DNA of 63,836 bases, counting the filler, from Folioceros fuciformis (Eukaryota): assembly GCA_049999805.1 (NCBI GenBank). It is 9 parts of 9 records of this genome, joined end to end, with 100 filler letters (N's around TTAATTAATTAA, not from the genome) between each part and the next. Parts side by side here need not be neighbours in the genome. Positions count along the whole stretch, not along the records: positions 25,882 to 30,663 come from JBNGIO010004386.1; 8 more parts are not named here. One strand, written 5' to 3'. Positions 5,416 to 62,537 of this stretch are shown one piece after another; positions within the stretch are counted from its first letter, which is position 1; every line of letters starts with the position of its first letter. Position numbers and translations under genes: made by a program. Below the pieces are notes generated by a model that was given only the letters and a program-made list of their open reading frames with translations, did no database searches and was not told the DNA's origin.

Positions 5416-6175
5416 TTGGTTAATTGACCAGGAAATAGTTGGTTTGGTTATTAGAGTGGGTATAGGTTTGGTCCCAGACCTGGGAAAGTTTAGGTCCGGT
5501 ACCGGGCAATAGGGTTATTAAAGCCCAATGTAATTAAACTAATGTGATTAGTCTAATTAAACTAATGTGATTAGCCTAATTAAACTAATGTGATTAGCCT
5601 AATTAAACCAATGTGATTAGTCTAATTAAACTAATGTGATTAGTCTAATATTAGTATCTAATTAAGTATCATTAGTTTAGATTAGCTTAAGCTAATTTTT
5701 AGAAAGCTTCCTGCATAGCTTCTTGTGAAGCTTCCTGCGAGCTTTTTGTGAAGCTTTTCTAGAGGGTATGAATACCCTCTGGAGCTCCCTTTGCAAGAGA
5801 GATGTGAGAGACACTATGAGAGATGAGAGAGAGCTGTGAGAGACATTGTGAGACCTCTCTTTCTCCTCTCCTCTTCGTGAGTTCGACTCTCCATCCACAG
5901 TAGCAAGGAACCCCATCGCTCCTTCGTGGGAACAAAACCCAATGTCTCAATGACAGTGGGATAAGTGTGGCCACTAAAGGTGGAACTCGTCGGCAATCNN
6001 NNNNNNNNNNNNNNNNNNNNNNNNNNNNNNNNNNNNNNNNNNNNNNNNNNNNNNNNNNNNNNNNNNNNNNNNNNNNNNNNNNNNNNNNNNNNNNNNNNGA
6101 TTAGCCTAATTAAACCAATGTGATTAGTCTAATGTGAACCCGTCGGCAAACAGTGCCCGGGGTTTTGCCTCCACA
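5416..6175 (+). mobile_element. 5' LTR of an Athila-like Gypsy element (contains a gap)
   Basis: Ends ...GGTTTTGCCTCCACA directly before a PBS. TATA-like GGGTATGAATACCC at ~5764. Homologous to 59181-59430. Confidence 0.8.
5531..5648 (+). repeat. 23-bp tandem repeat (TAATTAAACTAATGTGATTAGYC), ~5 copies, in LTR U3
   Basis: Direct inspection. Confidence 0.85.
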
Positions 6176-7529: not shown

Positions 7530-10500
7530 GGAGAGGGAAAGGGAGCGGGAGAGGGAACAAAAAGAGAAAGAGCAGGAAAGGGAACAAGAAAGAGAGAGGC
7601 AGAGTGAAAGGGACAAAGAGCGAGAGAAAGAACGAGAGCGAGCTGACATAAGCAAACAAGCTGCCCAAAAGCAGAGCAAAGGAACGAAGGTTCCTGAGTT
7701 TAGGGTTAAGCCACCAGACCGTGCAGGTAAGCTTGTCTAGTGGTCTGTTCTGATCCTGTTTTTCACTGCGTGCCCTGACAAAGCTTTATGTGAGGGTGAA
7801 TTTGTGCGAAAGTTAAAATCCGCTATATTTCTGAATCCTCAGCTTCTGCAACTGCGGTTTCTGCGGCCTCCTCTGTCTTGGCCACGTGTCCTCCAGCTGG
7901 AGGCAGCGGCTCTAGTAGTGTGACCTCTAGTGTGGGTGCACTTCCCATTTCTATGGGCATGTCTGGCTGGCCCTATGGGTGAGTTTAGCAAACCGCTTTT
8001 TCCATGATAATGTTGCTCCCCACTCTCGATGGCCGTCCCTGAATGACTATTGAAACTGGTTTTTAGCAGCTACTATGGATCTGCAGCTGCTGCTGTAGCA
8101 GCTGCTGCTTGCTCTATAAATGCAGCTATCCCAGCAGAAGAAAACAACAACCCTCCTGCTGCCCAGGTCTCCTCTCTCGACCATGTGATTGTACCTCCTG
8201 TCTCATTCATGTCTCTACATTTTATGCTGACTCTGTCAAATTTCTATCACTTTTTGTGTCCCTTATACCCTTTTCGTCATGGTGATCTCTTGCATGGGTA
8301 AGTGACAAGATTGTGTGGTGTGCGTGATGTTAAGCAGGCTGCACCTTATCCGGTTCTAAGAAACAATTGGAAGCGCTGTGCTTCACATGTATATATTGCT
8401 CATTTTATTGACTACCAGCAACAGATCAGTCGTCATCCTTATTTTGGTTCAGCCTATCAAAACTCAGCAGCTGGTGTGTTTGGGGGAAAGCCATACAACC
8501 TTAACGTGCCTTTAGTCCCTCAAGAGACTGTGTTTGGCAGTGCATCAGGGGCAACTGGTGCTGGAGTTCCAGGGGCCCCTGCAGCAGGTGCAGGAGCACC
8601 CAGCACTGGGCTTGGTGCTGGAGGCATGAACGAGCGAAGTCTTGGAGCTGCGTCACATGCGGCAGCAGTAAATGCACAGGCAGCTAAAGAACGAGCAGCT
8701 GCCCCTTATATTGATGTTCTTTCTAGGAAGCAACCTTCCCAGCAGCAGCATTCTTCCCATCAGCAGCAAGGTCTAACGCTGCAGGTGACTTGCCTCTACG
8801 CCTTAATCCAGTTGGTTGGTTAATGTAAGTTGATTCACAGAAGGCTTGTAGCTGACCTTGTTAAGCTTTTGATCACAGGCTGGTGCAGCGTATGGATTCC
8901 CAGTCACTCAGACTGGGTCTGCCGCTGTGGTAAATGGTGGAGCAGGCACTCTATCTGCTAATGGAGGGGCAGGTGGCACAGGACCTGGAGTTCCTATCAT
9001 TAGTGGCTCCTCAGCCGGTACAAACACCTCTGTTGGTGGTGCAGGGGCTGGAGGTGGAGCCAACAATGGCTCATTGGCCAATGCCGCAGCTGCACAGGCC
9101 CAAATGCTGCAGATGATCCAGCAGACTGGCTTTCCTTTTACGTTCCCCACTCATTTTCCGCCTACTTTCAACGGTGCAGCTGGTCATCTTACTCCCCAGC
9201 AGGTACCATCTACTCTCTTGGATTTCGCAAGCTAATTTTCTAAGGCTAAATTTGCTGGCCTGCATCGTTCCGTTTTGTTAGTCATTGCCACAGAAACAGG
9301 CTGGCGTCTCATGACCCACTGCTGTCTACCACCCTTTGTGATTGCAGGCTCAGTATTTCGCGCCCTTCTACCCCCATCTGGTTCCTGCACATCTGGCGCA
9401 GAGCCAGCAGTCAGGAAATGCTTCTGCAGCCCCACAGAAGCAGCAGCAGCAGCACTCCTCACAGCAGCAGCCTCAACACTCACAGCAGCAGCAACATGCT
9501 CAGCAGCTGCAGCAAGGAGTGCGAAATTTCTCGTCAACATCTCCACAGCAGCCGCCACAGTCGCCATCCCAATCTCAGCAAGCTCAATCTGGATCTGCCT
9601 CTCTGCAGGCACAACACCGACAGCTTGATAGGGAGACTTCTGTTACAGGGGAGGGTTCAACAGCTGACAGCAAGTTCCCGCTGAGGATGTATAGTCAACC
9701 ATCATCAAACGGCACAGTTTCTACTGCCATGGCTGCCCAGTCCACAGTGCTCGCGGCAGGGATGCAGCTCCATGGTCCAGAATATCTAATGGCTGGTCTG
9801 GGTGGAAAGCAAATGAGCAAGCAACTTCAGCAACAAGTGATGCAGCATCCACATCAACAGTCACAGCACCAGCAGGCCCTAACAGCTGGGCCTATGCAAG
9901 TGCCCTTATCCATGTCTTCTCAGTTGCAGCCACAAGGTCCAACTTTGCAGATGAGTTTGAAGGGCCTCGACACACAACAGGCGTCACAAGCTTTCTCTGC
10001 CATGTCCATGGCTGCTATGAATCGAGGAGCAGTGGGCCCTGGGCCCCTTGGCCTTGCAAGTGTAGCTGCCGTTATGGCTCCGCAAGGTCATGCCATGTTG
10101 CAGGGGGTGGTGGACCCTAGTCGGGCTCATTCCCAGCTTCAACAAAGTCCGCATCATTCGGCTGTTAGTGGTCAATCTCACCAGCAGCCAATCCAGCAAG
10201 GAACTCCTCAGCATCAACAGCGTTCGCTGCAAATGCCGCGTGAAGATAACAGATCCATGGTGGATGGGAGTACTTACACAGGCGGTAACCGGGCAAGAGA
10301 TGGCACTGACGAGCGGAAGGCCTCTGGGAAGCGAAATTCTGGTACTGGATCACCTATGTCCCGAGTAGATCTCGAGAGTCTTCCAGGCATGCCTGGACCA
10401 TCATCATCCGGAATCCCAGCTACTCGGCATGTGAACAGTGTGGGCCCAACACTGAACTTGATGACTCCAGCAAGTGGAGTTATGTCGTCCCGATCCTCCG

Positions 10501-11786
10501 TTACTTCCTCGGGGGAAGGACCTCCAGTCAACCAGAAGCAGGTCATGAGTCGCAACAAAGCTGTTGCCTCTTCAAATGTTGCTCCAGCATCAGGGCCAGG
10601 TGTATCGAGCCTTTCTTCCTTTCAAGAGAGATCTGCCTTACAAGCGGGCCTGTCGACTAAGTCGTCTGGAACTGGTCTGGGTCTGCCACTGGGGCAAAAT
10701 GCCGTTGGTACCAGCCAAGGTCAAGGCATAAGGCAGCAAGTCCATCCGGTGAAGCAGCAGCAGCTTCCTACAAGAACCTTGGGCGGTCCTCTGCCAACTG
10801 CTTCTGGTTCGAACCCTCAGGCTGTTCTCGCAGGAGCCATCAAAAGCTCCCAAAGTCAGCAAAGTCCTCGTCACAGTCAGCAACCTGTGCAGAGCGGGAG
10901 TCCTGCTGCTAGGATGTCTTCTGGTCCTGCGGGTTCACCGTCATCTGGCTCACTGCCCTTGCCTCCCCTTCCACCCACTTCGAAAGCCACAGGGACTGTT
11001 GTTGCTAAGGCTACAGCAGCAGCTAACAAGGTCACATTCCCGGCATCTCAGAAGTCATCTTCGTCAGCTTCAAGCAAGAGGTCCTCCACACCTTCTATCT
11101 TGGGGCCTACACCTCAGACTGGGACTGCTAAGCTTTCGCAGCAGATGCCTCAGCAAAATCAGCTTCATGGGTGTCAGCAGGCGCAGGTTTCCTCGCAGGT
11201 GCAACAGCAGCAGCTGCCAACGTCACCTCTTTCATCAACGTCTCTTGGACCGCCACAGCAGTATCATCCAGTGCATGCTGGTCAATCACAGGCTCATCAA
11301 AACAACAAGCAGACAATACCACAGCTTCAGCAGGCATCACAGCAGCAACACCAGCATCAGCAACAGCAAAATCAGCAACACCATCAACAGCAGCAGGTTC
11401 AACATCAGCAGCAGCAGCCTCAGCAGCCGCAGCAGGCTTCTTCACCGTTGCCGTCTGCGACTGTTGGGCCTTCACAGCAGCAGGCAGTTCAGCAGTACCA
11501 CCAACAAGCACACAGTGGGCTACAGAAACAGGGTTTGACGCAGCAGCAAGTGCAACAGCAGGCCCAGCAGCCGCCGCCTCAGCAGCCGCCGCAGCAACAG
11601 CAGCAGCCAATGCAAGTAACCAGGCAAATGTTTCAGAGTCAGCAGCAGTTTCTGCAGCAGCAGCAGCAGTCACCAACACAGGTGGATTCTCGGGGTCAGC
11701 AGCAGCAGCAGTTGATGCAACAGCAGTTGCAGCCGGCATCCTCGCAGCAGCTGCAACAGCAACCTAGCGTTGTTAATCAGTCCTGA
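7530..11786 (+). CDS. TIC: TIME FOR COFFEE-like protein, 5'-truncated. Exons ~7530-7726, 7843-7978, 8070-8166, 8338-8784, 8879-9202, 9348-11786
   Basis: TIC-type motif WKRCASHVYIAHFI preceded by LPISMGMSGWP. In-phase GT-AG introns. Q/S/P-rich C-terminus. Confidence 0.8.
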
Positions 11787-12710: not shown

Positions 12711-15700
12711 TTACTCATGACCGTCCGAAATTTGTACCAAATCCCCTACAAAATTTTCTATATCTGCATGCCCCAGTTGAATCCGGACACTGCAGAAGCG
12801 GGTGTACACGCTTTCCAGCTGTAGCAAGTTGAAGCCTTCTGTCTGCAAGACAAGCCTCTCCACTAAATGTTGACTCTGATCTTTGTCCAATAGACCACGT
12901 CCATCGTCACCATCGCCGTTTTCTAACGCATGCTCTCCGCTGATCTCCATTGTCTCTGCTGCGTTTTCCCGCACAGTCGAAGCCAAGGTTTCTGACGTCG
13001 GATTCTTGCAGCTGTCAGACTTGTCTTGGGGGTTCTCGAGATCAGCAACGCCAGCTGTGGAGGGCTCCTGCCCTAGTTGTTCGGGGACCAGCTCTTCCAT
13101 ATTGTGCGTCAGAGACTCTGGCTCCCCTGCCATTTCACCTACTGCTAAAGTAGGCAAAGCCGAACATTCAAGAGCCATCTCACCAGCAAATCCCCCTGCC
13201 ACCTCACCTGCATCCATCGTTACTGCCCAATATTAGAAAATGCTCATCACAGCCATCGTAGACAGAAAACTCCATCTCCACGTGCCTTGTTGCAAACCGT
13301 CATTGCTCGTTGTTGGACCCTTCATTGGGATGCCAGAACTTCCAAGAGAATTGGGAAGACGAGAGGTAATATTGGGTCTTTCTGTTGGCCCACCCTGGGC
13401 TGCAATGGCATCACATTGTGCCACTAAGGCAGGTTCCAACTGCGAAAGCATTCCCTGCACCTATAGAAGGACGAATCTCGTTCATTCATGGTCAACTGAA
13501 ACTGTAGCAGCTTTAAACATGGGAAAACAGGAAATTAAATTATACCAAATCACGAAGAGCACATGCTTTACTGTAGATTCGATTAGTTGTGTAGTCATTA
13601 CCATTGTACGCCTGTCACATGTCAGAATGTAGAGTTAGAATTGGAATCTTAAACACGAAATCTTCCAACGGCAGGAAGCTCTCACATACCTTAGCATTGG
13701 CAGGAATTAGCTCCACATCTTCCACAAATCTTTCACGTGTCATGTAGTAACCAGAGTCGACTCGTTGCAATAACGTGGCTACATCCATGGGAGTTTTTAC
13801 GAACTTGCAGTAATCTGGTGCGTCTTGATCTGTCACTGGATAGTGGAACACGCTGAAGTGCTTTTCATGAAGCAGGCTACACCCAACAAGAAGAAAAGTC
13901 AGTTCCACTCAACACACAATCTCGAAAGGGACACAAAATAATGTGCAGTTACTCGGGCTCATCACCTATTGCAAACGTCCCTCAGACACATGCGTAGACG
14001 TCGAACAGCATGTTCCTCAAGGTCTGCCCGTGCAAGCAGTTCAGCCTCGCTTGGACACTTCTCTACAACAGGCGCCTTCGGAAGGGTTGGGAGCGGGGCC
14101 TTCTGCTTCAACTTCTTCCTTGACTTGCGATGTGAGAGTGCAGCTGCTGATTCTATCATATGAGAAAACAACGTCCTTCTATCTCCTGCTGAAGGAATCT
14201 TCAACTCATACCTGAGAGACGTGCAATCGAGAACATTAAATTCTAACTCTCTTCCTCTCAAAAGATGGCTTGATATCAACGACTCCCAAGTTAACTAGCT
14301 AGCAAGCCAACTTACACAGAGTGACCAAACATGCCGAGGGCTTCCTGATCTAATTCCTTGGGAGACACTGATGCAGTGCCTAATAGTAGCACCGGAAGGT
14401 CAGGAGGAACCTCGTACAGAAGCATTAACAGGACTGCACGTAGCTGGTCATGTGCCTGCGTGATATCACTCAACCTTGTTAACATTCCCTCTTCGGTTCT
14501 AACATTTGCATTATCAGTCAAGCAAAAGTCCAACACAGGCCAGTTCATCTCTCCTCTGCCTTCCATAACATTTCAGGAATGGATGTATTTTCCAAAATAG
14601 GTCTGCAGTTTCTTACTGTTTCCCACCAAAGCTGTAGCTGAGGGAGATACAGAACCGATGGAGTACACCGGCGAGCCTCTTGAAAAACGTGAACCAGCGC
14701 TTCTTCAGGACTCTTCGCACTAGCATCCGATAGCAATGCAGGGAGGCTGAGAGAGTGGACGGGATATTTTTCCAGCTCATGAAGAACTGCTGGTCCGACG
14801 TAGTCCTGTCAGTTCCACCAAACAGGAGTTGTAGCTCAGGCATTGCAAAAACAATGAAGCGGAAAGGGAATTGATTGATAACTCACCAAGCCAGTTCCCT
14901 CGACACCGCACACCAAAAACCTTGGTCTGTACACACGAGACACTGAAAAGTTCCGAAATGAAAACAGCCTAGCAAGCTGTTCACCAGTTTCTTCCTCGTC
15001 AGAAGAAATGCCACCATCGTTACCCTCTAGTGAGAAGATTTCGTTAATGCCACTCATGATAGCCTTAACTTGCCCTAGCAAACATGAAGCGACCTGCATA
15101 GGCAAAGGCCGAGCAAGTACAAGAGCTCCTCTGTGTGCAGCAGGTGTAATTGAAGACATAGCTTCAAGGAAGTGTCGCTTTCCAACCTCAATGGAATCCA
15201 AGTCCAAAACATACTGCTCATCATTTGTGTATACTTGAGGATACTTCCTTCGGAAAGCTCTGATTGCCGCTTCGGTGCATAATGCCTTCAAGTCTGCCCC
15301 ACAGTAGCCCACACAGGAGGCTGCGAGTTCGGCCTTCAGTTCCTCTGTAGGCGGAACTACCCACTTCCTGGTGTGAATGTCCAGAATTTCTGCTCGAGCT
15401 TTCAAATCAGGTAACGGAAACACAAATTCTCTATCAAATCGACCAGGCCTCCTCAGTGCACTGTCAATGGCATCAACCCTATTTGTGGCACCAATTACCA
15501 CGACCTGCCCCCGCGAATCAAGGCCATCCATCAAAGCCAGTAACGTTGACACAATGGAGTTATGAATCTGTTCCTGCTTGCTTGAGCGCACTGGCGCCAG
15601 GCCATCTATCTCGTCAAAGAATATAATGGAGGGCTGACAGCGTTGAGCTTCCTCAAACAACGCTTTGAGTTGTCTCTCAGCTTCTCCTACCCATTTGCTC

Positions 15701-17648
15701 AGCACATCGGCACCTTTACGCATAAAGAAACTAACTTTTTTCCCTGCCTTTGATGCTTGAGCAGCTAGAGCCCGAGCCACCAAAGTTTTGCCAGTGCCAG
15801 GTGGCCCACAAAGCAGAACCCCTCTTGGTGGAGTGATATGATGGTTAGCAAAAAAATTAGGATACATCNNNNNNNNNNNNNNNNNNNNNNNNNNNNNNNN
15901 NNNNNNNNNNNNNNNNNNNNNNNNNNNNNNNNNNNNNNNNNNNNNNNNNNNNNNNNNNNNNNNNNNNNCATCAAGGGAAAAAATACCATCTCCTTTAGAG
16001 AATAAATGTAGTTGGACAGACCACCAATCTGGTCAAAACTCACCGATTCATCCACAACTACTGGCTGAATGTCAGCCCCTCCTTTGGAAGTCGGTCCTGC
16101 AGTTTGAACCCCCGCTCCGCCGCCGATGGAGCCCCAATGATCAGTTTGATTTGGAGTTCCCCATGCTGTACCAGCTGCGTTCAGGTTCCAACTTGCAAAG
16201 GCACTCATGTCCCCAAAACTCCCAGGAGGAAGGAAGGGAAGGCCAGCAGAACGGCATGATCGAGCCCATGTACCACCAGGTGCCTGATCCATCTCGTCCA
16301 CAAGGAGAGAGTCGTCAGAATCCCCAGCTCGTTGTCTCTTAAACCCACGCGAGCTACTTGTTCTACCTTCCCGGCCTCGCTTCGTACCGGTCCCTGCGTG
16401 ATACAGTTTGCGAGGAGATCGTGCACGAGAGGCCTGCACTTCTCTACGTGGCGAGAAACGCTGCACCTCAGTTCGGCTCCGTAGAGCATAACGACGCCTG
16501 CCATCCCCCTCATCGCCTTCATCCTCCTCTTCTCCCTCCTCCTCTTCTCCGTTATCAGCTAACTCTCGATCATTCCCGTCCTGCTTCAATTTCCCTTCTT
16601 GCTCCTTCTGCCGAGCCTTCTTCCGCTCCTCTTCCTGCTCATCCTCCTCCTCTTCCTCCTCCTCACCTTCTACCTCCATTTCATCGTCCTCTTCCGAGGA
16701 GGTCTCTTCCTGATCATCCGAATCCTCGTCCTCCGAATACTCCTCCTCGGACAGATATTCCTTTCTCTTAGTCCTACTTTTCTTGCGAGGCCGCAGACCT
16801 GCCCTCCTCGGAGGCTCTTTCCTGCGCAATTTCTTAATCGACCGAAAGCCATGTCTCCTGGACACCTGCACAGCTCCGACTGATCAGCCCCGCCATACCC
16901 GGCCATGCAGCCATTCTCCAAAAACCACCGTTCAGCATACCCACCCTCACAGGTCGGGCCTCGTCCTCACTGTCGGAATCCAGCCCCATGTACGTCGAGC
17001 GTCTCTTTCTGGTGGACCGACGAAGGCTCGTCCCGTTAGGCTGCAACAGAGCAGAGGCAATCAACTCAATCGGCAACCTGACAACCTGGTCCTCGCAGCT
17101 CACAAGACACAGCCATGTTACAAAACGCAACACCGTACCTGCAACGACTCCGCCGCCGCCGCCGCCGCCGCCGCAGCATCAGCAGCATCTTCGGACTGGC
17201 CCCGATCAGATTGCGCCGTTTGCCGGGTCATGTTGTTCTGGCAGCACACATGGAGGAGGAAATCAGCAAAAAAAGAATCGTCTCCCTACTCTGGTACTCC
17301 GTTGCAGGAAGGCTCCAGCCGACTAGCCGACATGGCAAGCTAACAATGCCGTGGCAGGAGCACGCAGACCAGGCCTGCTGGCTTGTCCTCCATGCACTTC
17401 CGTCGGGCTGGCTCGAACCTCTTAGCGATCTCGGAGGCAGGGGGACGGCCCTTACCCTTGCCCCTGCCCTTGCCCGTCACCTTGCCAGCAGAGTAGCCAG
17501 GTTTGTGGAAGTGGCCGAGGCCAAGGGCGCGGGTGCGCAGGCGTGTGATGTGCACGTCGCTGGTGGACGGAAGCGGGACCGGAACCGGAAGGGGGAGTCC
17601 CCGCTGCTCAGCCAAGCCCTGAGGATCCCCACGTCCCGAATCTTCCAT
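12711..17648 (-). CDS. ATAD2: ATAD2/Yta7-family AAA+ ATPase with bromodomain (BRAT1/At1g05910-like). Exons ~17648-17370, 17040-16951, 16865-14887, 14805-14617, 14455-14316, 14211-13966, 13876-13690, 13611-13546, 13460-13286, 13222-12711
   Basis: Walker A GPPGTGKT, FFMRKGADVLSKWVGEAERQL, Walker B IIFFDEIDG, degenerate second AAA domain, bromodomain (FHYPV..DAPDY..PMD..NAKAYN), acidic N-terminus. The 15869-15968 gap has overlapping flanks (FFPLM/MYPNFF). Confidence 0.93.
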
Positions 17649-22013: not shown

Positions 22014-25000
22014 TATTAAGGGTAATAAAAGATATCCTAACACAGATTAACCAATTATAACCTACTGCTAGTTAGGTTAAAGTGAATAAACACTTTAGTA
22101 AGTATTTAAACATGCACGATTTTGTATTTTAATCAATTCATTCAATGTTTACAACAAGGTTCCGCTTATTATCATGGTATCAGAGCTCTGGCTCTTTGAT
22201 CCATGTTGCTCAGTTGTTCATAGATTTAGGCTACTCTATAAAATAGAGCAGATGTTGTACTCTTGATGAGACAAGGTGTCTTTTAACATAGCTTAGTGTG
22301 CATTCATTTATGCACGCTGAGCAATGTTGCAATGTCCACTAGATAGCATTTGATGAGTCTAGCTATGATGGGATCATTATACATATTAGACTATGTTGGT
22401 CCCATCTGACTAGCAGGGATGACGCGTAGGTCTAGAAATAGGCATCATGTTTCGTGCGTAGGGAAATTTAAAACTGAATTGACTTCTACCACAAACAGAT
22501 ACCTTGAGGATTCTTCAAGCAGAATCTCAAGACAAATCTCACGCAAGGCATTCATCTCCATAGTATCTCAAGTGAAGATATCATGTGGTGAAAGATATCA
22601 TGTGGTGAACAAAGGAATCAGCGTTCCTGTATCTGTTGTGCAAATTTGTGTCCAAGCTCAAGATGAGGATTAGCAAGACAACCATCAAGAGTGTTGTCAC
22701 CCTATGAAGATGAAGATTCGATCCTAAAAGTGACTCGTTCAGCAATTGATGGTTGCATTCGAGACACTATGCTTCTGTTGTTCTAAACAAGATCAGATCT
22801 CACCCTTCAGATGGATTCAGCAATTCGAATGATTGCCGCTCTCACGGAGGATCTGTGCCTGCAATTTGAGACTTCTTAAGTGCAAACTGTGACTTTTCAG
22901 AGAATTGCGCATTTTCTCAGAGTTTCAGACCCAGGACTCTTGCTGATGGATTCTCAAACTGCCCTGTACTTACCAACGTTGTCGCCTCCGATTCACGAGC
23001 GCGATGCTTTAGAGGCGGCATGATTAGATTGGTGAGAGGTGTGCTACAGCTGGAGGTGGACAAAGCTCACCACTCCAGGCGCTATTTGCAGCCAGCCACC
23101 AACAGGCGCCTTGCACATGACTTACGGTTGGTTGTCATGTACACGTAGGCACATTGCTCCTAGATTGTGTACACCTGTCATGAACATACAACTTGTCATA
23201 TCCTTAAACTTGTAAGTTAGGGCACCTTTGGTGTTTCTAGGGCTCACTTGCTTACCGTTTCGAATCTCCATGTCGTTTTGGAGTGGTGTTTTGATTCTGA
23301 TTTGTTGTTGATTTGTTTTTTGATAAGTTAATAGCCTGCAAACATTTGATGCGTCCACGTATTCTCTGCATGAATGCATAGCCATTTTCTGTATGTTAGG
23401 TCTCTCACTTCTCTTTGAAGAGACTGATAGTGATCCTGACACAGACCCAGAAACAAAGGCGTCATTTTTGCAGTCTCTAACTTCTCAATTTTCCTCTATC
23501 GTTGCTCCTCCTGCACCTGTTTTCCTTGTTGTTATTGCACAAATGACTACAATATAGATTGTATCTTTCGGAGGCGAATTCAAGGAAAAAGACCATTTTG
23601 ATGGTACACATACCAAGTATGAAAGCTGGGCGAGCTAGGATGAAGGCATTCCTAGATGCTCGTGATGTGTGGGAGTATGCCAATGGCTCGATTCCTGTTC
23701 CTGCACCGACTGATCCCCAAGATGTTAAAGACAAGTTTGTCAAAGGGAACAAGGTGGCCTTTGCTATCATACTTTCAGGCCTTGGAGAAACTACAGTTAC
23801 AGAAGTTGAAAGCTTGCCTATAGCTGCTGCTGTGTAGGAGCAACTTAAAAAACACTTACCAGGTTCAAAATATATTGACGCTGGTCTCTGTTCGTAATCA
23901 ATTCTATCGCTTGCGTTTGAAGGAAGGGGATAGTTTGGGAGCACATATAACCAAGTTTCAGTTGCTGAGGGCACAGCTTGCTACGCTCGGCAACATAATG
24001 TTTGAAGTGGATGTTGCTTGGCAGTTTGCCTCCCACCTATCAAACCTTCATTTCTAGACAAAATGCTGCTCTTCAGTCTTCATATATTGTTGTTGCTGCT
24101 AGTCAACCAGTGACTATCAACCTCAACAATGTGACTGGCGCACTCCTGCAAGAGGAGCAAAGCCATCACAGGTCTGGATCCAGTTCCAGAAATCGAGGTG
24201 AAAAATTGCTCTTGGCAGCCAAGGGCAAAATGTTTGGGAAGGGGACGGATAAAGGAGGAAAGAAACCTACCTCCATTTTATCCTCGACTGCCAAACAAGT
24301 TGGCACTTGCCACTGGTGTGGCATTCCTGGACATTGGGAGTGCGACTGTCGAAAGAAGCAAGCAGGTGATCCAAAGAAGGACGTGAAAGTATCACAAGCT
24401 CATGTTGCTGTGAAGGACTCAAAGTTACCTTCACACAAGAGTGCTGCAACAGCCTTGACTGTGCGCTTCACTGCTACACGTGAGCTTTCATCACTGTGGT
24501 TTATTGACTCAAGTGCCTCTGCACATGTTTGCAACAACTGGCAGTTGTTCACAACTTTCTAGAACACAACCTCACCACCACAGTTAGTTTATATGGGAGA
24601 TGCTCAAGGAGTTGCAGTTAAAGGTACTGGGCAGGTGGTCATACCTTTAATGAGTGGAGGAACACTTCAGTTGGAAGATGTCCTCTATGTGCCCTCCATG
24701 TCGAAGAACTTGATCTCCATCCGAGCAATTACAAGCAGTGAGTTGTATGGTTTCCATTTTGAAGCTAACCACTGTTACATTTACAATTTAGATGATTCAA
24801 ACCATCATGTAGCTGAAGCTACATTAGTTGGTGACCTGTACCAGCTGTTCACTACATCCAAGACGTTAGAACAAGCTTATGCAGTAACTTCGATGAATCA
24901 GGCTAAGTTGTGGCATGCTAGATTAGGTCATGTAAATAAAACCAAACTTGACCTTATGTCAATGTTAGATTGTTATAGAGAGAAGTTGCCGTCATGCTTC

Positions 25001-25781
25001 AAATCACTTCCTGTTTACAGTTCCTATGTCCTGTCCAAACAGAAAGAACTACCCTTCAAAAATAGGAATGCCACAAGGGCAACATCCTTGTTAGAGTTGG
25101 TACATGCTGACATAGCTGGAAAACTGCAAATTAAGTCATTAGGAGGTGCTGAGTACTATCTAACAATCACTGATGATTATTCAAGATACACTTGGACTTG
25201 CCCATTGCGACACAAAAGTGATGCTTTTGATCAGATTTCATCCTGGATTGTCATGGTTCAACGCCAAACTGGCTGCCTGGTAAAATGCCTAAGAACAGAC
25301 AATGGAGGTGAGTTTGTTGGCTACAAATATGATGAGCTGTTTAAAAAGTGTGGCATCATTTGCCAACTGGCTGTACCTTACACACAACAACAAAACGGTG
25401 TTGCTAAGCATAAGAACTAGACACTTACGGGCATGACTCGAAGTATGCTATCTTATGCAGGATTACCTAAAAAGTACTAGGCTGAAGCCATTACTACTAC
25501 AATATATATACTGAACAGGCTACTTACATCTGCTGTTCGATGACGGACTCCTTATGAAGTGTTCTGGGTACGTAAGCCCAGTATAAATCACTTAAGAGTA
25601 TTTGGATCATTTGCCTTTGTATATGTTCCTACAGGAAGAAGGAAGAAGTTAGATGACAGGGCAATTCCTTACCTTTTTCTTAGGTTACTCTGAGGAGAGT
25701 AAGGCTTACAACTTGATTAATCCTCAAACTCATAAGGTGGTGCTCGCAAGAAGTGTCACGTTTTGTGAACTTACCTCTCCT
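22014..25781 (+). mobile_element. Ty1/Copia element: 5' LTR ~22014-22174, PBS, gag, protease, integrase (decayed)
   Basis: tRNA-iMet PBS TGGTATCAGAGC at 22175-22186. CHWCGIPGHWECDC knuckle, WFIDSSAS protease, LWHARLGH, LELVHAD, LRTDNGGEF. Confidence 0.92.
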
Positions 25782-25881
25782 NNNNNNNNNNNNNNNNNNN
25801 NNNNNNNNNNNNNNNNNNNNNNNNNTTAATTAATTAANNNNNNNNNNNNNNNNNNNNNNNNNNNNNNNNNNNNNNNNNNNN

Positions 25882-28800
25882 AGCCTAACAATGCTTTCAA
25901 AACACCACACAGCCCTCTCTAGATCTCCATGGCTTTTGCAGGCATTCAACAAAGATGTCAAACACACCACAGCACTTTGGCCCTCACATGATAATAGCAT
26001 CCTCTCTGCCTCATCTAATCCGCCAGCACGCCCAAGAAGATCAATCATGCAGGTGTGATGCTCAACAGTAGGTATGACACCATGCTGTTCAGCCATGGAA
26101 TCAAAGAGCTTGCGACCCTCCTGGACCAGACCCGCATGACTGCATGCTACTAGAAGGCAAGTAAAAGTAGCATCGTCAGGATGAACACCGGCAGCTAACA
26201 TCTCCTCAAAACAAGATAGCGCCTTGCGACCTTCATCACAAGCGCCATACCCAGCAATCAGGGCATTCCATGTCACCACATCTTTAATGGCCATGCTGTC
26301 AAAAACCTGGCGTGCATCTTCCAGCTCACCACATTTTGCATACATGTCCACCAGGCAGGTGCCCACCACTACATTATCCAGCATTTCTCTTTCAACAATC
26401 TGTGAGTGCAGCTTCCTGCCCTTCTGCAAGGCACCACTGCTTGCACACGCCTTCAGAATGCAAGCAAAAGTAACATCATTAGCCAAAACGAGGCCTGCCT
26501 CCTCCATCCGTCCATACACAACAAGCGCCTCTTGGCCGAGTCCTTGCTGTGCATACCCAGCAATCAGGGCCGTCCACGTCACCACGTCCTTCGACGCCAT
26601 CCTGTCAAAAACATGGCGTGCATATTCAAGCTCACCACATTTTGCATACATGTCCACCAGGCAGGTTCCCACCACTACATCATCCAGCAGACCTCTCTGG
26701 ACAATTTGTGAGTGAAGCTTCCTGCCCTTCTGCAAGGCTCCAATGCTTCCACACGCCTTCAGAAGGCAAGCAAAAGTAACATCATTAGCCAAAACGAGGT
26801 CTGCCTCCTCCATCTGTCCATACACAACAAGCGCCTCTTGCCCGAGTCCTTGCTGTGCATACCCAGCGATCATGGCTGTCCATGTCACCACATCCTTCGA
26901 GGCCAAGCCATCGAAAACCTGGCGGGCATCTTCCAGCTCACCACATTTTGCATACATGTCCACCAGGCAGTTTCCCACCACTATATTATCCAGCAGTTCT
27001 CTCTTCACAATCTGCGAGTGAAGCTCCCTGCCCTTCTGCAAGGCACCAGTGCTTGCACACGCCTTCAGAAGGCAAGCAAAAGTAACACGGTCAGCCAACA
27101 CGAGGCCCGCCTCCTCCATTTGTGCATATACAATAAGCGCCTCTTGGCCGAGTCCTTGCTGTGCATACCCAGCAATCAGGGCATTCCATGTCACCACATC
27201 CTTCGAGTCCATCCTGTCAAAAACCTGGCGGGCATCTTCCAGCTCACCACATTTTGCATACATGTCCACCAGGCAGGTTCCCACCACTACATCATCCAGC
27301 AGACCTCTCTGGACAATCTGTGAGTGAAGCTCCCTGCCCTTCTGTAAGGCCCCAATGCTTGCACACGCCTTCAGAAGGCAGGCAAAAGTGACCCCGTCAC
27401 CCACCACGAGGCCCGCCTCCTCCATTTGTCCATACACAACAAGTGCCTCTTGGCCGAGTCCTTGCTGGGCATACCCAGCGATCAGGACCGTCCATGTAAC
27501 CACATCCTTCGACCCCATCCTGTCAAAAACCTGGCGTGCATATTCCAGCTCACCACATTTTGCATACATGTCCACCAGGCAGGTTCCCACCACTACATCA
27601 TCCAGCAGCCCTCTGCGGACAATCTGTGAGTGAAGCTCCCTTCCCTTCTGCAAGGCACCTGTGCTTGCACACGCCTTCAGAAGGCAAGCAAAAGTAACAA
27701 CACTAGCCAAAACGAGGCCTGCCTCCTCCATCTGTCCATACACAACAAGCGCCTCTTGGCCAAGTCCTTGCTGTGCATACCCACCGATCATGGCTGTCCA
27801 TGTCACCACATCCTTCGAGGCCATGCCGTCGAAAACCTGGCGGGCTTCTTCGAGCTCACCACATTTTGCATACATGTCCACCAGGAAGTTTCCCACCACT
27901 ACATCATCCAGCACACCTCTGTTAACAATCTGTGAGTGCAGCTCCCTGCCTTTCTGCAAGGCTCCACTGCTTCCACACGCCTTCAGAAGGCAAGCGAAAG
28001 TAACACAGTCCGCCAACACGAGGCCTGCCTGCTCCATCTGTCCATACACAACAAGGGCCTCTTGGACGAGTCCTTGCTGTGCATACCCAGCAATCAGGGC
28101 ATTCCATGTCACCACATCTTTCGTGTCCATCCCGTCGAAAACCTGGCGTGCATATTCCACCTCACCACATTTTGCATACATGTCCACCAGGCAGGTTCCC
28201 ACCACTACATTATCCAGCAGTTCTCTCTTGACAATCTGTGAGTGAAGCTCCCTGCCCTTCTGCAACGCACCAGTACTTGCACACGCCTTCAGAAGGCAAG
28301 CAAAAGTAACACGGTCAGCCACCACGAGGCCCGCCTCCTCCATTTGTCCATACACGACAAGTGCCTCTTCGCCGAGTCCTTGCTGTGCATACCCAGCGAT
28401 CAGGGAATTCCATGTCACCACATTCCTCGTGTTCATGCGATCAAAAACCTGGCGTGCATCGTTCATTCGGCCACATTTTGCATACATGTCCACCAAGCAG
28501 CTGTTAACAAACAGGTCAGTACGGAAGCCACTGCGCATCACGTCGCGGTGCACTGTTCTGCCAGATTCTAAATCGGCAGCAAATGCACAAGCTTGAAGGG
28601 CGCCTACAAAGACATAACCATTCGCCCTCACTTCTGACCTACGCATTTCATGGTACAGTTGTATGGCCTCCTTCGCCTTCCCCTGCTTAGCGTGTGCAGA
28701 GATTATGGAAAACCACATGAAGACATTCGGTTTCCCTACCCTGTTGAACACATCCATCGCCTCCTTTAACCTACCTCCACATGCATACATGCGCAAGATA

Positions 28801-29903
28801 TGGTTCCCCAAATATGCATTCGACTCGTACCCAAGTTTGATTGTGAGATCATGAACTCGTCGCCCCACCACCAAATCCTTCTTAGCTGTACAGAGTTTTA
28901 ACACTGTGTAAAACAGAGACTGAGAAACGCCAGAGTCTGACTGCACCAGAGATTCCAGGGCTCCAACCGCCTCAGAAAGCTTCCCCTGATGACATAACAT
29001 GCTCACGGTTGCAGCAGTTACGACGCCCGTTTCCAATTCTGCACGCCTGCCAGATCCACACTTATACAGAGAGCTGCACTCGAAAGAAGAGACTCCATGG
29101 CCCATTGGATGTGGAAGTGCTGGGTTTCTTACACTGCTGCCCCTGGAGCCCATTTCACCACCTGTACTCCTTCCAGGTTCAGGGTGATCTGGAGAGCTCA
29201 AGTTGGAAGCAGACCTCTGCATATCCAAGGNNNNNNNNNNNNNNNNNNNNNNNNNNNNNNNNNNNNNNNNNNNNNNNNNNNNNNNNNNNNNNNNNNNNNN
29301 NNNNNNNNNNNNNNNNNNNNNNNNNNNNNNCAGAGAGCTGCACTCGAAAGAAGAGACTCCATGACCCATTGGATGTGGAAGTGCTGGGTTTCTTACACTG
29401 CTGCCCCTGGAGCCCATTTCACCACCTCTACGCCTTCCAGGTTCAGGATTATCTGGAGAGCTCAAGTTGGAAGAAGAGGAACCGAGACCCATCTGCATAT
29501 CCAAGGAGACGAGCTGCTCATCAACCCAAGCTGGCTTAAACATGTTGTCCAACCACAGCACCTCGCCGGACCTCTTACGCCGGAAGTCAGGGGAACGGGA
29601 GCTCTTCTTGTCTCGTCTGTTATCCCACCACATGGTAGGGTCCAGAAAAAGTTGTTGCCACAAGTGCTCCTGCTGCTCCTGGCAAATACCACCATCGTCG
29701 GAAAACCCGTCCCTGCCCACACACGTTTTCGTTCTCGGAGGTGGAAGTGCTGGGCTCCTGACACTGCTGCAGCTGGAGGCTTTGTTTGCAAAGGGTTCAT
29801 TCCCCAAGCTGAGGTGAGCGGGGGTTCCGGGTAGAGTGCTTGTATACACACCAATTCCAATTTGTTGGGTCCACAACAGGTCCGGTTGCCATGCTGTGGC
29901 CAT
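25882..29903 (-). CDS. PLS-class PPR RNA-editing-factor-like protein with N-terminal PDF motif; C-terminus (E2/DYW) lost at linker
   Basis: Seven near-identical 102-aa triplets (36+35+31 aa), then P2-L2-S2-E1. Intronless open frame apart from one N gap. Confidence 0.92.
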
Positions 29904-30014
29904 CGTTCAGGGACCGCTGTCGGAATATGACTCCAACAAAAGTCTCGTCTAGGAAGATCCCCGGCCGGATACACTGTACGTATGTATGACCACACCAGCC
30001 TGAAGGGATGCACC

Positions 30015-30113
30015 GTGAGCCGTCCTGCCAGAAGGGGTGAGCCGTCCTGCCAGAAGGGGTGAGCCGTCCTGCCAGAAGGGGTGAGCCGTCCTGCCTGAAG
30101 GAGTGAGCCGTCC
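30015..30113. repeat. 22-bp tandem repeat GTGAGCCGTCCTGCCAGAAGGG, ~4.5 copies, upstream of the PPR gene
   Basis: Units start at 30015, 30037, 30059, 30081 and 30103. Confidence 0.9.
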
Positions 30114-30763
30114 TTTACTACCTGTCGGCGACCTGTCGGACTGGTGCTTTAGACCACTCTACCATGTGACGGTTATTAGGTAGTAACTTTATGTTTCAGT
30201 TTAGATAGACAAAACTGTTAATTACTTGTCAGCCTCCGTAAGGAAAACAAGATTTTCATTTAAGGCTTGTCAACGTTAAGTGCATGCCGTCCTACATACC
30301 CCAAGATATTTTGACCGAACCATGGTATCACGGTCTCTGTTTCTCATCACGCAGTTGGGTCAAGTGGTATCTTGAAGGCCGAAACGGTGACGCGGTCCTG
30401 CATGTGACTAGACGAGGAATTGCCGTTAAGTAAATGTCTAGATATGTGCCTCGCACTGCCTGGATTGTCAATGGGGTTGCTAGTTTCACCTGCTTCCTGT
30501 GAACTGCCAAGCTCTTGTGCCTGGATACTCCTCGGCATACTGGCTACCAATGTGCTTTCACCTGCACTGTACACCATCATATACATACGGCACTATTGGT
30601 AAGGAAACCGAGTTGCGGAGACCCTGCAAAGCACGTGTACAACGTGCTCATCATGAACAGTGTNNNNNNNNNNNNNNNNNNNNNNNNNNNNNNNNNNNNN
30701 NNNNNNNTTAATTAATTAANNNNNNNNNNNNNNNNNNNNNNNNNNNNNNNNNNNNNNNNNNNN

Positions 30764-31963: not shown

Positions 31964-32279
31964 GCTTTGGTAGTAAGTAGTACGGGGCGCATCATTTGGT
32001 GGTAAGCGAGGTCAGCTAGAATCACTGCTGTCCGTCCAAGGAGCACAACTTTGGCTCCAATTTCGTGCACTGCGGTGTAAGCAAATCACGATTTGAAATT
32101 AGGGTTTTAGTAACTATGGTTTAGTTTAACCCAGCGGCAGACACAACCAATAGCCAGTGAAGCCTATATGGTATATGGTGTATGTACCATGGTCACATGT
32201 TATGTGGCAACCTTTGCAGGCACACTCGTGTAAGAAGAATGTCAGTGGGGCCCAAACCTGGCCACCTGATTTTTACGGC

Positions 32280-33190
32280 TAGCCAAACAATATTGGGCTG
32301 AAGCCCTCACAACAGCTGCCTACATACTTAATCGGATTTTGACTACTTCTGTACCTGGTAAAACTCCTTACGAGGTTTTCTGGAAGAAAAAACCAAGCCT
32401 TCTACACATGCGAGTGTTTGGCTCCATAGCGTATGCTTATGTTCCTAAACAGAAACGACGCGAGTTAGACAACAGGGCTAGGCCCCTGCAGTTTCTTGGT
32501 TATTCTGAAGTATCGAAAGCATATAAGCTATATGAGCCTTCAACCAAAAGAGTGGTACTAGCTTGGAGTGTAACTTTTGATGAACTTTCATCCCCACGTA
32601 AGAGTACAGCTAAAATTAATGGTACCAGCTTACCTATCCTGGCTGATGATGAAGACAATCCAGGGTCTGAACTGCTCACTGAAGCATCTATTCCAGCTGA
32701 ATCTGTAGCAGTTTCTCCCTCATTAGTTGTCACACCACCAACAGTTAATTACCCTGATTCTGATGGCGATTGCTCATTACCTGTTGAGGATGTTGTTTTT
32801 GATGGTGAAGAGATTGCATCAGATCCTACTTCAGATTAGGTTTTGCCTCATGATCATGATGGATAGTCGGAGGCTACTGGCTCACTTTCCGATCTTGACG
32901 AAGTTTCAGAGATTCCAGATGGTGATCTTCCTGCTGTCCAAGAAGTGGGAGCACCTCTTCATGAACCGGTCACCGTAGAATCAAGATACCCTGCACGTGA
33001 CAGATGACCTCGTGAGCAGTGGACTAAACCTCCTTACCAAGCATTAGACTTTAGGCGAGGAGCACAGACACATGTGTCTGATTTTCATTTGCCTGAAGTT
33101 CACCCTGATCCACAAACATACAGTGAAGCAATTAATGGTCCTGATGGTTCTCACTGGAGAACATCCATCAATGAAGAGTATGCATCCCTA
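32280..33190 (+). mobile_element. Ty1/Copia fragment (integrase end to RT start)
   Basis: YWAEAL..YILNR, TPYEVF..KPSLLHMRVFGS, FLGYS..KAYKLY, DPQTYSEA..W..SINEEYASL. Confidence 0.9.
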
Positions 33191-45803: not shown

Positions 45804-48800
45804 AGATTCCTTTTCCTAGGGCACCTGCACATCGTGCGTCCAACATTCTAGAATTAGTTCATGCAGACATATCTGACAAGATACATATACCTAGTCTGGG
45901 AGGTGCACAATATTATTTAACCCTCACAGACGACTACAGCCATTACTCCTGGACTTACCCTATTGTTTTGAAGTCCGAGACTTTTACTGTGTTCCAAGAG
46001 TGGCTTGCTATGGTGCAGAGGCAACAGGGTGCTTGCTCAAATGTCTCCGCACTGACAACAGCTCAGAATTTGTGAATGCTCACTTTGACCTGTTTCTGCT
46101 TGACAGTGGTGTCATCAGGCAGTTGATTGTGCCATACACCTAGCAACAAAATGGAGTTGCTGAGCAGCGCCATCAGACCCTATTGGGCATGACAAGAAGC
46201 ATGTTAGAATGGTCTGGCTTGAGCAAGACTTTCTGGGCGGAAGCAGTGGTAACTACTACTTACATTCTGAATCATCTCTTGACAAGTGCAGTGCCTGGGC
46301 AGACTCCCTTTGAAGTCATATGGAGGAGAAAACCCAGCCTTCTTCATCTCAGGGTGTTTGGGTCTCCAGCTTACGTTTATATCCCTGCGGAGAAACGCAA
46401 GAAACTCAAAGACAGGGCAAAGCCTATGCTTTTCGTAGGATATGGCGAAGAAGCAAAGGCATACAAATTATATGACACACTTACAAAGACAGCAGTATTT
46501 GCTCGCAGTGTGACGTTCAAGGAGCTCCTTTGCCCGGCCAAGCCCTATTTTGATTCTCTGCCACATCACCAGGAGTCCGTTACTCACATTGATCTGACGA
46601 ACATGGATGATTCTTCAATTTTTCCACAAGATTATGTTCCTTCAGAACCTGGATAGTCCTTAGCATCCGTTCCGTCAGTTCCACCTCCAGTTCAGCAGCC
46701 AGCTCATGTTCTACCTCCTGTAGCGGGATAGGACCCTGTAGCAGTTCCTGTTCTTGCTGATCTTCCCCCTCAAGATGCTTTGCCGGCTGATCCTCACCGT
46801 GAAGATGCTGCAGACCATGCTGATTTTGCAGATGATGTTTCACATACATCTCTGTCAGACTCTGCTAGTGACATCTCTGTTGTTGCTGAGGACCCCGCCG
46901 TCCCTCTTGTTTTTCTTCCAGACCCTGAGCCACCTCCTCGTTATCCTACTCGCCAACGTCTGCCTCCTTCTCAGTGGGCAACGCCTCCTTATGCCTCCAT
47001 AGATTTCCGTAGACCTAGAGCCGGTGTTTCCCTTCCACAGTCTTCACCCTCTCCCTTAGATGCTGGTTCCTCTATCAAGCCAGAGCCTCGGTCTTACACA
47101 GAAGCTATCGAGGGCCCTGACAAGGATTTTTGGATTCCCTCTATTCAGGATGAGTATCAATCTCTCGTGAAAAATGATACATGGGAACTTTGTCCCCTGC
47201 CAGCAGGAAGAAAGGTGGTAAGCTGCAAATGGGTTTTCAAGCACAAATTGAACGCAGATAGTGAGATAGCTAGATATAAATCTTGCCTCGTTGCTCGTGG
47301 GTTTACACAAGTGCCTAGCGTGGACTTCACCGACACTTTCAGCCCTGTGGTTAAGACTCATTCCATCCGCATGATACTAGCCCTCGCTGTTGCCAATGCT
47401 TGGGATCTTCAGCAGATGGATGTCTGCACAGCATTTTTATATGGCGAGTTAGAAGAGGATATTTATATGGCTCAACCCGAGGGTTTCACTGATCTTGACC
47501 ACCCTGATTGGGTCTGTCGCCTAAAGAAAACGATCTACGGCCTTAAACAATCAGCTAGAGAGTGGTATAGAACAATTGATGCATATCTCAAGTCTATTGG
47601 TTTTCTTCAGAATCCTGGGGACGCCAATGTTTACCTCTATGCTTCAGATGGCCAAATTGTTATTTTGGCCCTGTATGTAGATGATGCTGTATTAGCATCC
47701 AATGATCCTGGTTTGTTAGCTTGGGTCAAGCAAATGCTACATCAGAAATTTGATATGAAGGATATCGGTTCTCTTACCTTTGTTCTTGGTGTTCAACTTG
47801 TTCATGATTTGCCTTCCCGTACTATCATGCTCCACCAAGCCAAGTACATTCGTGAGACCCTTCATCGTTTTCAGCTGGAGTCTGCTCATCCCGTTTCCAC
47901 TCCTGGGGTCCCTGGCGCTAAACTCTCAGCTGCTCAGAGTCCTCAGACTGATGTTGACAAACAGGATATGGCCCTTGTTCCTTATCGTCATGCTGTCGGT
48001 TGCTTGAATTATATCAGCTGTTGGACTCGTCCAGACATTCAGTATGCCATCAGTGTCGTCTCCCAGTTTCTTGATAACCCTGGCAGAGAGCATTGGGGAG
48101 CTGTTAAACGCATTCTGCGGTATTTGAAGGGTACTTTGCATTACGGCTTATGCTTCAGGGGGCGAAATACCGAGACTGAGCTTACCATTGCTGGCTTTGC
48201 TGATGCTGACTGGGCCACTGATCCCGATGCTTGGAGAAGCATATCCGCTTACTGCTTTACCCTGTCAAATGCAGCCATCCACTGGAGTTCAAAGAAGCAA
48301 TTTTCAGTAGCACTCTCCTCCACGGAGGCTGAGTACAAAGCTTTACCTGAAGCAGCTAAGGAAGCAATCTGGGAACGCTGTTTTATGAAAGGCCTTGGTT
48401 TCCAGCAGTCACAGCCGACATCTATCTTCTGTGATAACAGATCAACCATTGCCATGACGGCTAACCCAAGATTCCATGCCCGTACAAAGCACATAGAAGT
48501 GCATCACCACTTTATTCGCCATTCTGTGGAAGAGAAGGAAGTCAAGATTCAGCACATTTCCACAGACTACAACCCTGCAGATTTGCTCACGAAATATTTT
48601 CCCGCTCGTAAACAACTGCTACACATGGAAGCTCTAGGAGTGAAGGACTGCTCTCCACCAACGACGTTGTCCACCTGACTACCAACATTGTTGCGTATGG
48701 TGGATGAAGCTTCATCACGTACCCAATCGCATACTGCAGAGCAGTCGTTGGTTCTCAGGTTACTCTGGAGGCAGCGGACTGGCAGCTGCGCGCTTCAGTT

Positions 48801-61246: not shown

Positions 61247-62460
61247 CTAGTAAGCAAGGTGCGCTAGTCTACCGGCGCACTTCTACAATCTAAGGGTGCC
61301 GATCTATCGGTGCACTCCAATTAGTTTTCACAATAATACAACGAACTACATAATTCAATAAAAAAAACATAACTTACCAATTTAGGGTTTAGGGTATTGA
61401 TTAGCCGGGATGATGGGACTTCCAAGTGCACCGGGACACACTTGGGACTCCTTGACTTTGAAGTGCATTGAAACACATTGGGTCACTGGGACTCCCAATT
61501 ATGTTACGACACACTAGGATCGCGGGACTTCCAAGTGCATAAGGACATATTCATGATGGTGGGACTCTCGAGTTCGCCGAGAATCACTCGGGATGTAGAG
61601 ACTCCCGAGTGCAATAGGACACACCAGGACGCTGGGACACACTTGGGACGCTAGTACACTCTAGGATGCTAGGACTCGTGGTTGTGTCCGAACACACCAA
61701 GCCTGAGTGCTCCGGGACACCAGGTTCGGCGGGGCTCTCGAGAACACCGATACACTAAGACTCCCAAGGGTGCCAGGACACACCGGGTCACTAAGACTTC
61801 CAAGTGCACCATGACACACTGGGACGCTAAGGCTCCCAAGTGTGCCAGGACAGACCGGGACGTCGAGACTCCCGATTGCACTGGGACATACTAGGACGTT
61901 GGGACTCCCGAGTGCGCTGGGACATACCAGTACGGCAGGACTCCATAGAGCACCGGCACACCAAGATGCAGAGACTCCAGAGTGCGCCAAGACACTACGG
62001 GACGCTGAGACTCCCGAGAGCACCACGACACACTCGAGACGCCGGGACACAATCGGAGTAGCGGGATTCCCGGGGGGTGCCGGGACACATTAGGGACAGT
62101 GGGACTCGCGAGTGTGCCGGGACACACTTGGGACACCGGGACGCACTTGGAGCGGCGGGACTCCCGGGTGTGCTGGGACACATTAGGGACAGCGAGACTC
62201 ACGAGTGTGCCGGGACACACTCGGGACAGCGGGACTCCCGAGTGCGACGGGGCACACTCGGGACAGCGGGACTCCCGAGTGCGCCTGGACACTCTAGGGA
62301 CAGCGGTACTCCCGAGTGCGCCGGGACAAACCGGGACACTGCGACTCCTGAGGGCTTCGGGACACACTTGGGACGGCTGGGACTCCCAAGTACGCCGGGA
62401 CACACCGGGACACACCGGGACACTGGGTCTCCCGAATGCGCAGGGACAGGGACGGAGAGA
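61247..62460 (-). mobile_element. Probable non-autonomous Helitron filled with a ~38-bp GC-rich minisatellite
   Basis: Minus strand 5' A|TC at 62460. 3' hairpin GTGCGCCGG-TAGA-CTAGCGCAC, 8 nt, then CTAG at 61250-61247. GGGACTCCCGAGTGCGCCGGGACACAC repeats at 61415-62440. Confidence 0.55.
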
Positions 62461-62537
62461 TGAGCAGGCGCATTCAACCTAAAGTGCAATTGCAATATTC
62501 CTTGACGTAGTAGGTACACACTTGAGCACGGGGTACT

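Follow-up and report, generated by a model that had tools for sequence, protein, structure and literature searches.

An OSB-type PDF motif ahead of the PLS array of a probable organellar RNA-editing factor gene from Folioceros fuciformis, and related fusions in other non-seed plants

Layout of the locus

The window, i.e. the whole stretch of 63,836 nucleotides of Folioceros fuciformis DNA (assembly GCA_049999805.1) that was analysed, is a chain of small scaffolds linked by N-TTAATTAATTAA-N. The gene studied here lies on the minus strand of a 4.8 kb scaffold (25882-30663), in which a single nominal frame, 25830-29906 (-), holds both a PDF motif and a PLS array of PPR repeats. Its first ATG, at 29903, opens a Ser/Thr/Pro-rich stretch of 78 aa (29670-29903, -) that by its composition is a putative organelle transit peptide. 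The intronless PDF motif follows at 29511-29669 (-), corresponding to residues 79-131 counted from that ATG. Behind it are a low-complexity linker (copy A, 29331-29506, -), a 100-N scaffold gap (29231-29330) of nominal length, and a second copy of the linker (copy B, 29067-29230, -), which starts with the same residues that copy A has behind the PDF and leads in frame into the PPR array. A short tandem repeat with a period of about 22 bp is located just upstream of the gene, at 30015-30115.

The array itself (26280-29006, -; Pfam PPR E=2e-152) consists of degenerate first motifs, one S motif and eight P1-L1-S1 triplets, and its frame is free of stops throughout 25882-29230 (-). Pfam and motif parsing showed the triplets to be followed by P2-L2-S2, as in the PLS class, and common code pairs (TD, TN, ND, SN, NN) were found in 15 of the 17 P1/S1 motifs, the remaining two being FN and TS. 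P2-L2-S2 and most of E1 occupy 25882-26279 (-). E1 is cut at 25882 by the end of the scaffold, and any E2 and DYW domain of the gene thus lie beyond the visible sequence.

When the C-terminal module was compared by eye, with no tree behind the assignment, with the machine-read Suppl. Fig. 2 of PMC9478123, the residues of P2, L2 and E1 agreed with the KP3 rows, those of S2 with the KP2 row. KP2 and KP3 are hornwort GRP-type DYW:KP designers, and both edited U to C (PMC9478123). The gene resembles these editors in its P2-L2-S2-E1 residues, and through its paralog in the HAE and CxxC signatures, but differs from them by its N-terminal PDF, which is absent from the examined parts of the text and supplement of PMC9478123.

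The paralog is a pseudogene on another scaffold (62550-63836, -). It combines a PPR start with a large internal deletion, frameshifts, stops and a degenerate DYW domain of HAE type with CxxC (Pfam DYW_deaminase E=3.5e-28), lacking the terminal G-R-P at its degenerate end. Over 388 bp it is 97% identical to 28628-29015, and its C-terminal module shares 78% DNA identity with that of the gene (25882-26279). The deletion joins the first repeats almost directly to P2, and a GC-rich repeat region adjoins (~61500-62500). Since its 5' end runs off the window, any PDF there lies outside view. From these sequence features the locus is probably a nuclear gene of the GRP/DYW:KP (U-to-C) clade, encoding a PLS-class factor for organellar RNA editing, and its product probably a hornwort U-to-C editor. 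The hint that the original prediction took from a DYW:KP domain in the paralog thus served well as regards the kind of gene, given the GRP/DYW:KP-like module seen by eye and the HAE of the paralog.

Elsewhere, the window contains an AAA+ ATPase gene (14836-17300, -; Pfam AAA E=4e-41), which we take to resemble ATAD2/Yta7, and a gene with introns and Gln-rich exons that had no Pfam match (7530-11786, +), presumably similar to TIME FOR COFFEE. Many fragments of copia-type LTR retrotransposons (RVT_2, rve, gag_pre-integrase, SH3) were also observed, at 24563-25420, 32270-32839, 46732-48678 and other positions.

Continuity across the scaffold gap

The original prediction placed the PDF motif ahead of the PPR array in the same frame. 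The frame and the peptide at 29511-29669 (-) were confirmed; physical continuity was not, with the 100-N gap in between. The two flanks of the gap, 29067-29230 and 29331-29506, proved to be two versions of the same linker, sharing 89% identity across 176 columns, with a 12-bp indel in the overlap. Such overlapping flanks occur at two of the six 100-N gaps of the window, the other being located within a short tandem repeat (5999-6098).

One explanation is a misjoin, in which a PDF contig and a PPR contig from two recent paralogs were scaffolded via their shared linker. The imperfect overlap with its indel, and the 97%-identical paralog elsewhere in the window, are in line with this explanation. 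A tandem duplication of the linker would account for the overlap equally well, however, and a third, partial linker copy is indeed present at 29737-29778. Merging the flanks at their overlap also preserves the frame. Of the 24 sequencing runs listed by the run search, none was recorded as RNA and none contained half of the query words. Four were compared with the locus, all of them from relatives with a likeness of at least 84%, and they can therefore not close the gap of this individual. All four have multiple copies of the PDF region (62-98 contigs cover position 29573), and no contig among those listed spans the whole stretch across the gap, both of which speak for a misjoin. In run X9, single contigs of paralogs nevertheless connect the PPR side to the PDF side, one from 28976 to 29594 (shorter side 57 letters) and one from 29048 to 29455 (shorter side 76 letters), while part of the PDF is missing from some paralog contigs of runs X9 and X12. 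Coverage in two runs labelled "RNA?" fades at ~29930-30000, just upstream of the ATG, but continues in two other runs; as all of these come from other organisms, the pattern is a weak hint only.

Whether or not the join is correct, the array starts with the linker found behind a PDF, and its true 5' end therefore probably carries one. A misjoin, which would concern this locus only, appears possible but somewhat improbable to us, and the present PDF copy likely belongs to the present PLS array. The warning of a misjoin at 29231-29330 that accompanied the original prediction was thus justified for the locus, in view of the overlapping flanks, but leaves the architecture of the family untouched.

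The PDF motif and its fusion to PLS proteins in other plants

A phmmer search with the motif against 1.84 billion representatives returned 638 proteins at E<=0.001. Some of these matches, in Amborella, Chenopodium and Lupinus, are proteins or clusters that bear the name OSB3, and the motif aligned column for column with all four PDFs of Amborella OSB3. An HMM built from 395 PDF segments of non-PPR matches gave the motif 83.0 bits, a score that is partly circular as the segments came from the search with the same motif. In the shuffle control 390 of 500 shuffles were reported, with a top score of 5.1 bits, which rules out a chance match. By homology, the motif is thus an OSB-type PDF motif, just as had been predicted.

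No Pfam family matched the motif or the rest of the 191-aa N-terminal part of the gene. The SSB domain, which Pfam detected in P0015, P0016, L008 and L017, was not found in that part. AlphaFold (alignment of 13 rows) predicted a compact helix, a small beta core and a second helix, with a mean pLDDT of 84. Fold searches gave nothing at E<=0.001 in PDB or BFVD and a best match of Z 4.0 (rmsd 3.0 over 61 residues; 48,161 chains), results that are uninformative as to fold novelty. Word-index searches, insensitive compared with phmmer, yielded four and two candidates and no match, and a weak Atlas lead pointed to PF25690 (Phage_gp49), with a score below 0.9 and low recognition.

Arabidopsis OSB1-4 are organellar ssDNA-binding proteins with a PDF motif of about 50 aa in one to three copies (PMC6963530, PMC4166229, PMC13393729). 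The fused proteins share the size and copy number of the motif with them, and the moss-type fused genes also the OSB intron position. The PDF of OSBs is C-terminal, whereas the window gene has its PDF at the N-terminus, ahead of a PLS array, and is devoid of an OB-fold/SSB domain (Pfam, 191-aa N-terminal part). An ordinary OSB gene is thereby ruled out.

Fusions of the same kind were found in other plants. Among the best 150 phmmer matches eight were PDF+PPR proteins, and a ninth (P0112) breaks off within its first PPR repeat. With the three-PDF region of P0007 as query and proteins of 754-2400 aa as targets, 11 matches were obtained, nine of which contain PPRs. Named sources of PDF+PPR proteins are Adiantum capillus-veneris, A. 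nelumboides, Ceratopteris richardii, Pteridium aquilinum (transcript ORFs) and Sphagnum compactum, the last represented by a cluster of 25. A metagenome scan confirmed 141 loci, of which 80 were kept; 25 of these are PDF+PPR loci, collapsing to 10 genes. L003 corresponds to L066 after splicing: it has lost the PDF-internal intron, and its PDF continues into the PLS array in one 625-aa frame. The same splice is seen in L012/L073, with a broken PPR frame, and in L009/L053 and L007/L076 the match of at least 95% is limited to the 5' exons. P0131, with the PPR start closest to that of the window gene (44%), has PDF, linker and PPRs intact on one contig; the Atlas returned only generic PPR clusters for it. 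Fused proteins have one to three PDF copies, placed behind the presumed transit peptide and in front of the PPR array. In moss-type proteins the PDF nearly abuts the first repeat, and in fern proteins and the window gene a variable linker intervenes. The predicted joining of PDF and PLS is hence borne out by intact proteins from Adiantum, Ceratopteris, Pteridium and Sphagnum, spliced contigs included, and the fusion is a real and conserved architecture of non-seed plants.

In L078:2122-3431, a PDF with the shared intron is carried on a PLS protein with repeats unlike the peat-moss type. This suggests, tentatively as regards the lineage, that the fusion also occurs in another group of mosses.

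PDF motifs were also seen in other settings. Small proteins without SSB or PPR domains, from viral contigs and from GC-rich, probably prokaryotic or phage, records, have PDF-like motifs at their C-termini (L081:2563-3150, L082:512-1096, L011:180-737, L026:2-310, P0143). The motif has been stated to occur only in green plants (PMC4166229); a multi-PDF protein (P0006, also P0065) is recorded from the dinoflagellate Cladocopium, outside that group, possibly through contamination. In P0042 and P0038, both single angiosperm annotations, OSB-like parts are joined to a kinesin or coiled-coil protein, and these are probably merged gene models.

Helper domains fused in cis to PPR arrays are known: the accessory domains of PPR proteins include RRM, SMR, LAGLIDADG, NYN, CBS and SAP, and PPR-RRM and PPR-MORF fusions occur (PMC9459714, PMC13386178). 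In this respect the window gene is like them. "PDF" is absent from the main text of these two papers, and the examined parts of PMC6963530, PMC4166229, PMC13393729, PMC9478123 and PMC7027989 do not describe a PDF on PPR proteins. Our literature search as a whole, of partial coverage, gave no such description, and key earlier works could mention it. The PDF lacks a model in the Pfam version used, and surveys of domains or of PPR proteins would therefore miss it. A PLS editor with a PDF as accessory domain is apparently an undescribed, selected architecture.

Origin, selection and possible role of the fused PDF

A GT intron directly after WWDxRxxK was present in the genomic copies of seven of the 10 fused genes and also in OSB genes. 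Among the latter, L040, L042, L049 and L054 have confirmed OB-fold exons; for L036 and L052 such exons were not confirmed. The common intron position points to common descent of the fused PDFs with nuclear OSB genes. The window PDF is intronless, which fits retroposition, as reported for PPR expansions (PMC13386178). A PDF tree (93 rows, 68 columns) was poorly resolved and therefore does not separate one origin from several; the fused label needs five changes in it, and starred branches force two. The row nearest to the window PDF was P0083, a 162-aa ORF without PPR.

The shared intron, the partial PDF losses in paralog contigs and the existence of PDF-only ORFs such as P0083 and P0144 could mean that a PPR gene captured OSB-like 5' exons along with their targeting signal, and that the PDF is a passenger without a present role. 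Rates of substitution argue against this. For 21 pairs from seven moss-type coding sequences, a set that includes L004, which ends before any PPR could be scored, dN/dS of the PDF was 0.10-0.38 (median 0.21), compared with 0.23 for the PPR repeats (6 pairs). In four protein pairs the PDF was 74-87% identical and the linkers 21-56%, and the W, D, R, P-D-F and P-x-W-V positions were invariant across 29 fused PDFs. The fused PDF is under purifying selection, and we regard a mere passenger as quite unlikely, bearing in mind that the searches favour intact motifs and decayed copies are under-counted. Neither do the data favour a module tied specifically to U-to-C editing, at which the original prediction had hinted from the DYW:KP domain of the paralog. 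The GRP-type C-terminal module of the gene, the HAE of its paralog and the abundance of fusions in ferns, a U-to-C lineage, would agree with such a tie. L077, however, combines PDF, PLS and E with a complete DYW:PG domain, and the fusion is found in Sphagnum and in moss-type genes, two further of which have DYW remnants, although reports of DYW:KP and U-to-C editing are confined to hornworts, lycophytes and ferns (PMC9478123). A DYW domain was present in none of the 11 apparently full-length PDF+PLS database proteins, a small sample biased toward P0007-like proteins (five more that were examined are fragments), and no single-piece PDF+DYW:KP protein was among the sequences examined. Because of L077, the 11 proteins without DYW and the moss-type genes, the architectures recovered indicate that the fusion does not track editing direction and is not U-to-C-specific; a specific tie is very unlikely, and we have rejected it.

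We propose instead, with the scales about level between right and wrong, that the PDF would be a built-in, sequence-independent anchor for single strands that helps in cis to load the editor on its target. While the PPR array would read the target sequence, the PDF would add sequence-independent affinity for single-stranded nucleic acid, its ligand being RNA 5' of the PPR footprint or else ssDNA, in nucleoids and in transcription bubbles. Nucleoid tethering and the binding of single-stranded nucleic acid, both raised in the original prediction, are likewise inferred. Binding would raise the local concentration and dwell time of the editor, so that the PDF would do in cis part of the job of the separate helper proteins of seed-plant editors, as a general loading aid and not as a determinant of editing direction. 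We favour such an anchor because the PDF of OSB1 by itself binds ssDNA (PMC6963530), because OSBs bind single strands, ssDNA in preference to RNA (PMC4166229), and because conserved aromatic and basic residues of the PDF are retained in the fused copies. The linker arrangement, abutting or variable, suits an anchor and is compatible with both nucleoid DNA and upstream RNA as its ligand. Arguing against it, OSBs favour ssDNA whereas PLS editors act on RNA, some X9 and X12 paralog contigs have lost part of the PDF, and the PDF nearest in the tree lacks PPRs. When PLS repeats and a C-terminal module are combined into synthetic KP2 and KP3 editors, editing in E. coli reaches about 26% and 22%, respectively (PMC9478123), without a PDF, which is therefore not required for catalysis. 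Alternatively, the PDF might serve protein-protein contacts or oligomerisation, so that, for example, E-only proteins could bring in a DYW partner or editors could join OSB oligomers. The lack of DYW in the full-length database fusions, the tetrameric state of AtOSB2 (PMC6963530) and the invariant Trp residues, which could form an interface, would all be compatible with this. On the other hand, L077 has both PDF and complete DYW:PG, the 11-protein sample is limited as noted, and ssDNA binding is the only measured PDF activity in the parts of the literature examined; a protein interface is in our opinion unlikely.

Under a wider version of the anchor proposal, the fusion of the OSB-type module to PLS editors would date from an early stage of land plants and would have been retained in mosses, ferns and hornworts on editors of both directions, C-to-U and U-to-C. 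Docked by the module on ssDNA of nucleoids or on transcription bubbles, these editors would begin to act while the transcript is still being made. This scenario is tentative, and as a whole rather doubtful. If true, a PDF, omitted from the synthetic editors, would be native to a large part of the expanded hornwort GRP family of U-to-C editors, and organelle DNA maintenance would be physically linked to RNA editing. MORF proteins are restricted to seed plants (PMC13386178), and the question at stake is how, in plants that hyper-edit, hundreds of editors are loaded onto their targets in the absence of these helpers. A conserved helper domain in cis makes this question directly testable in existing editing assays.
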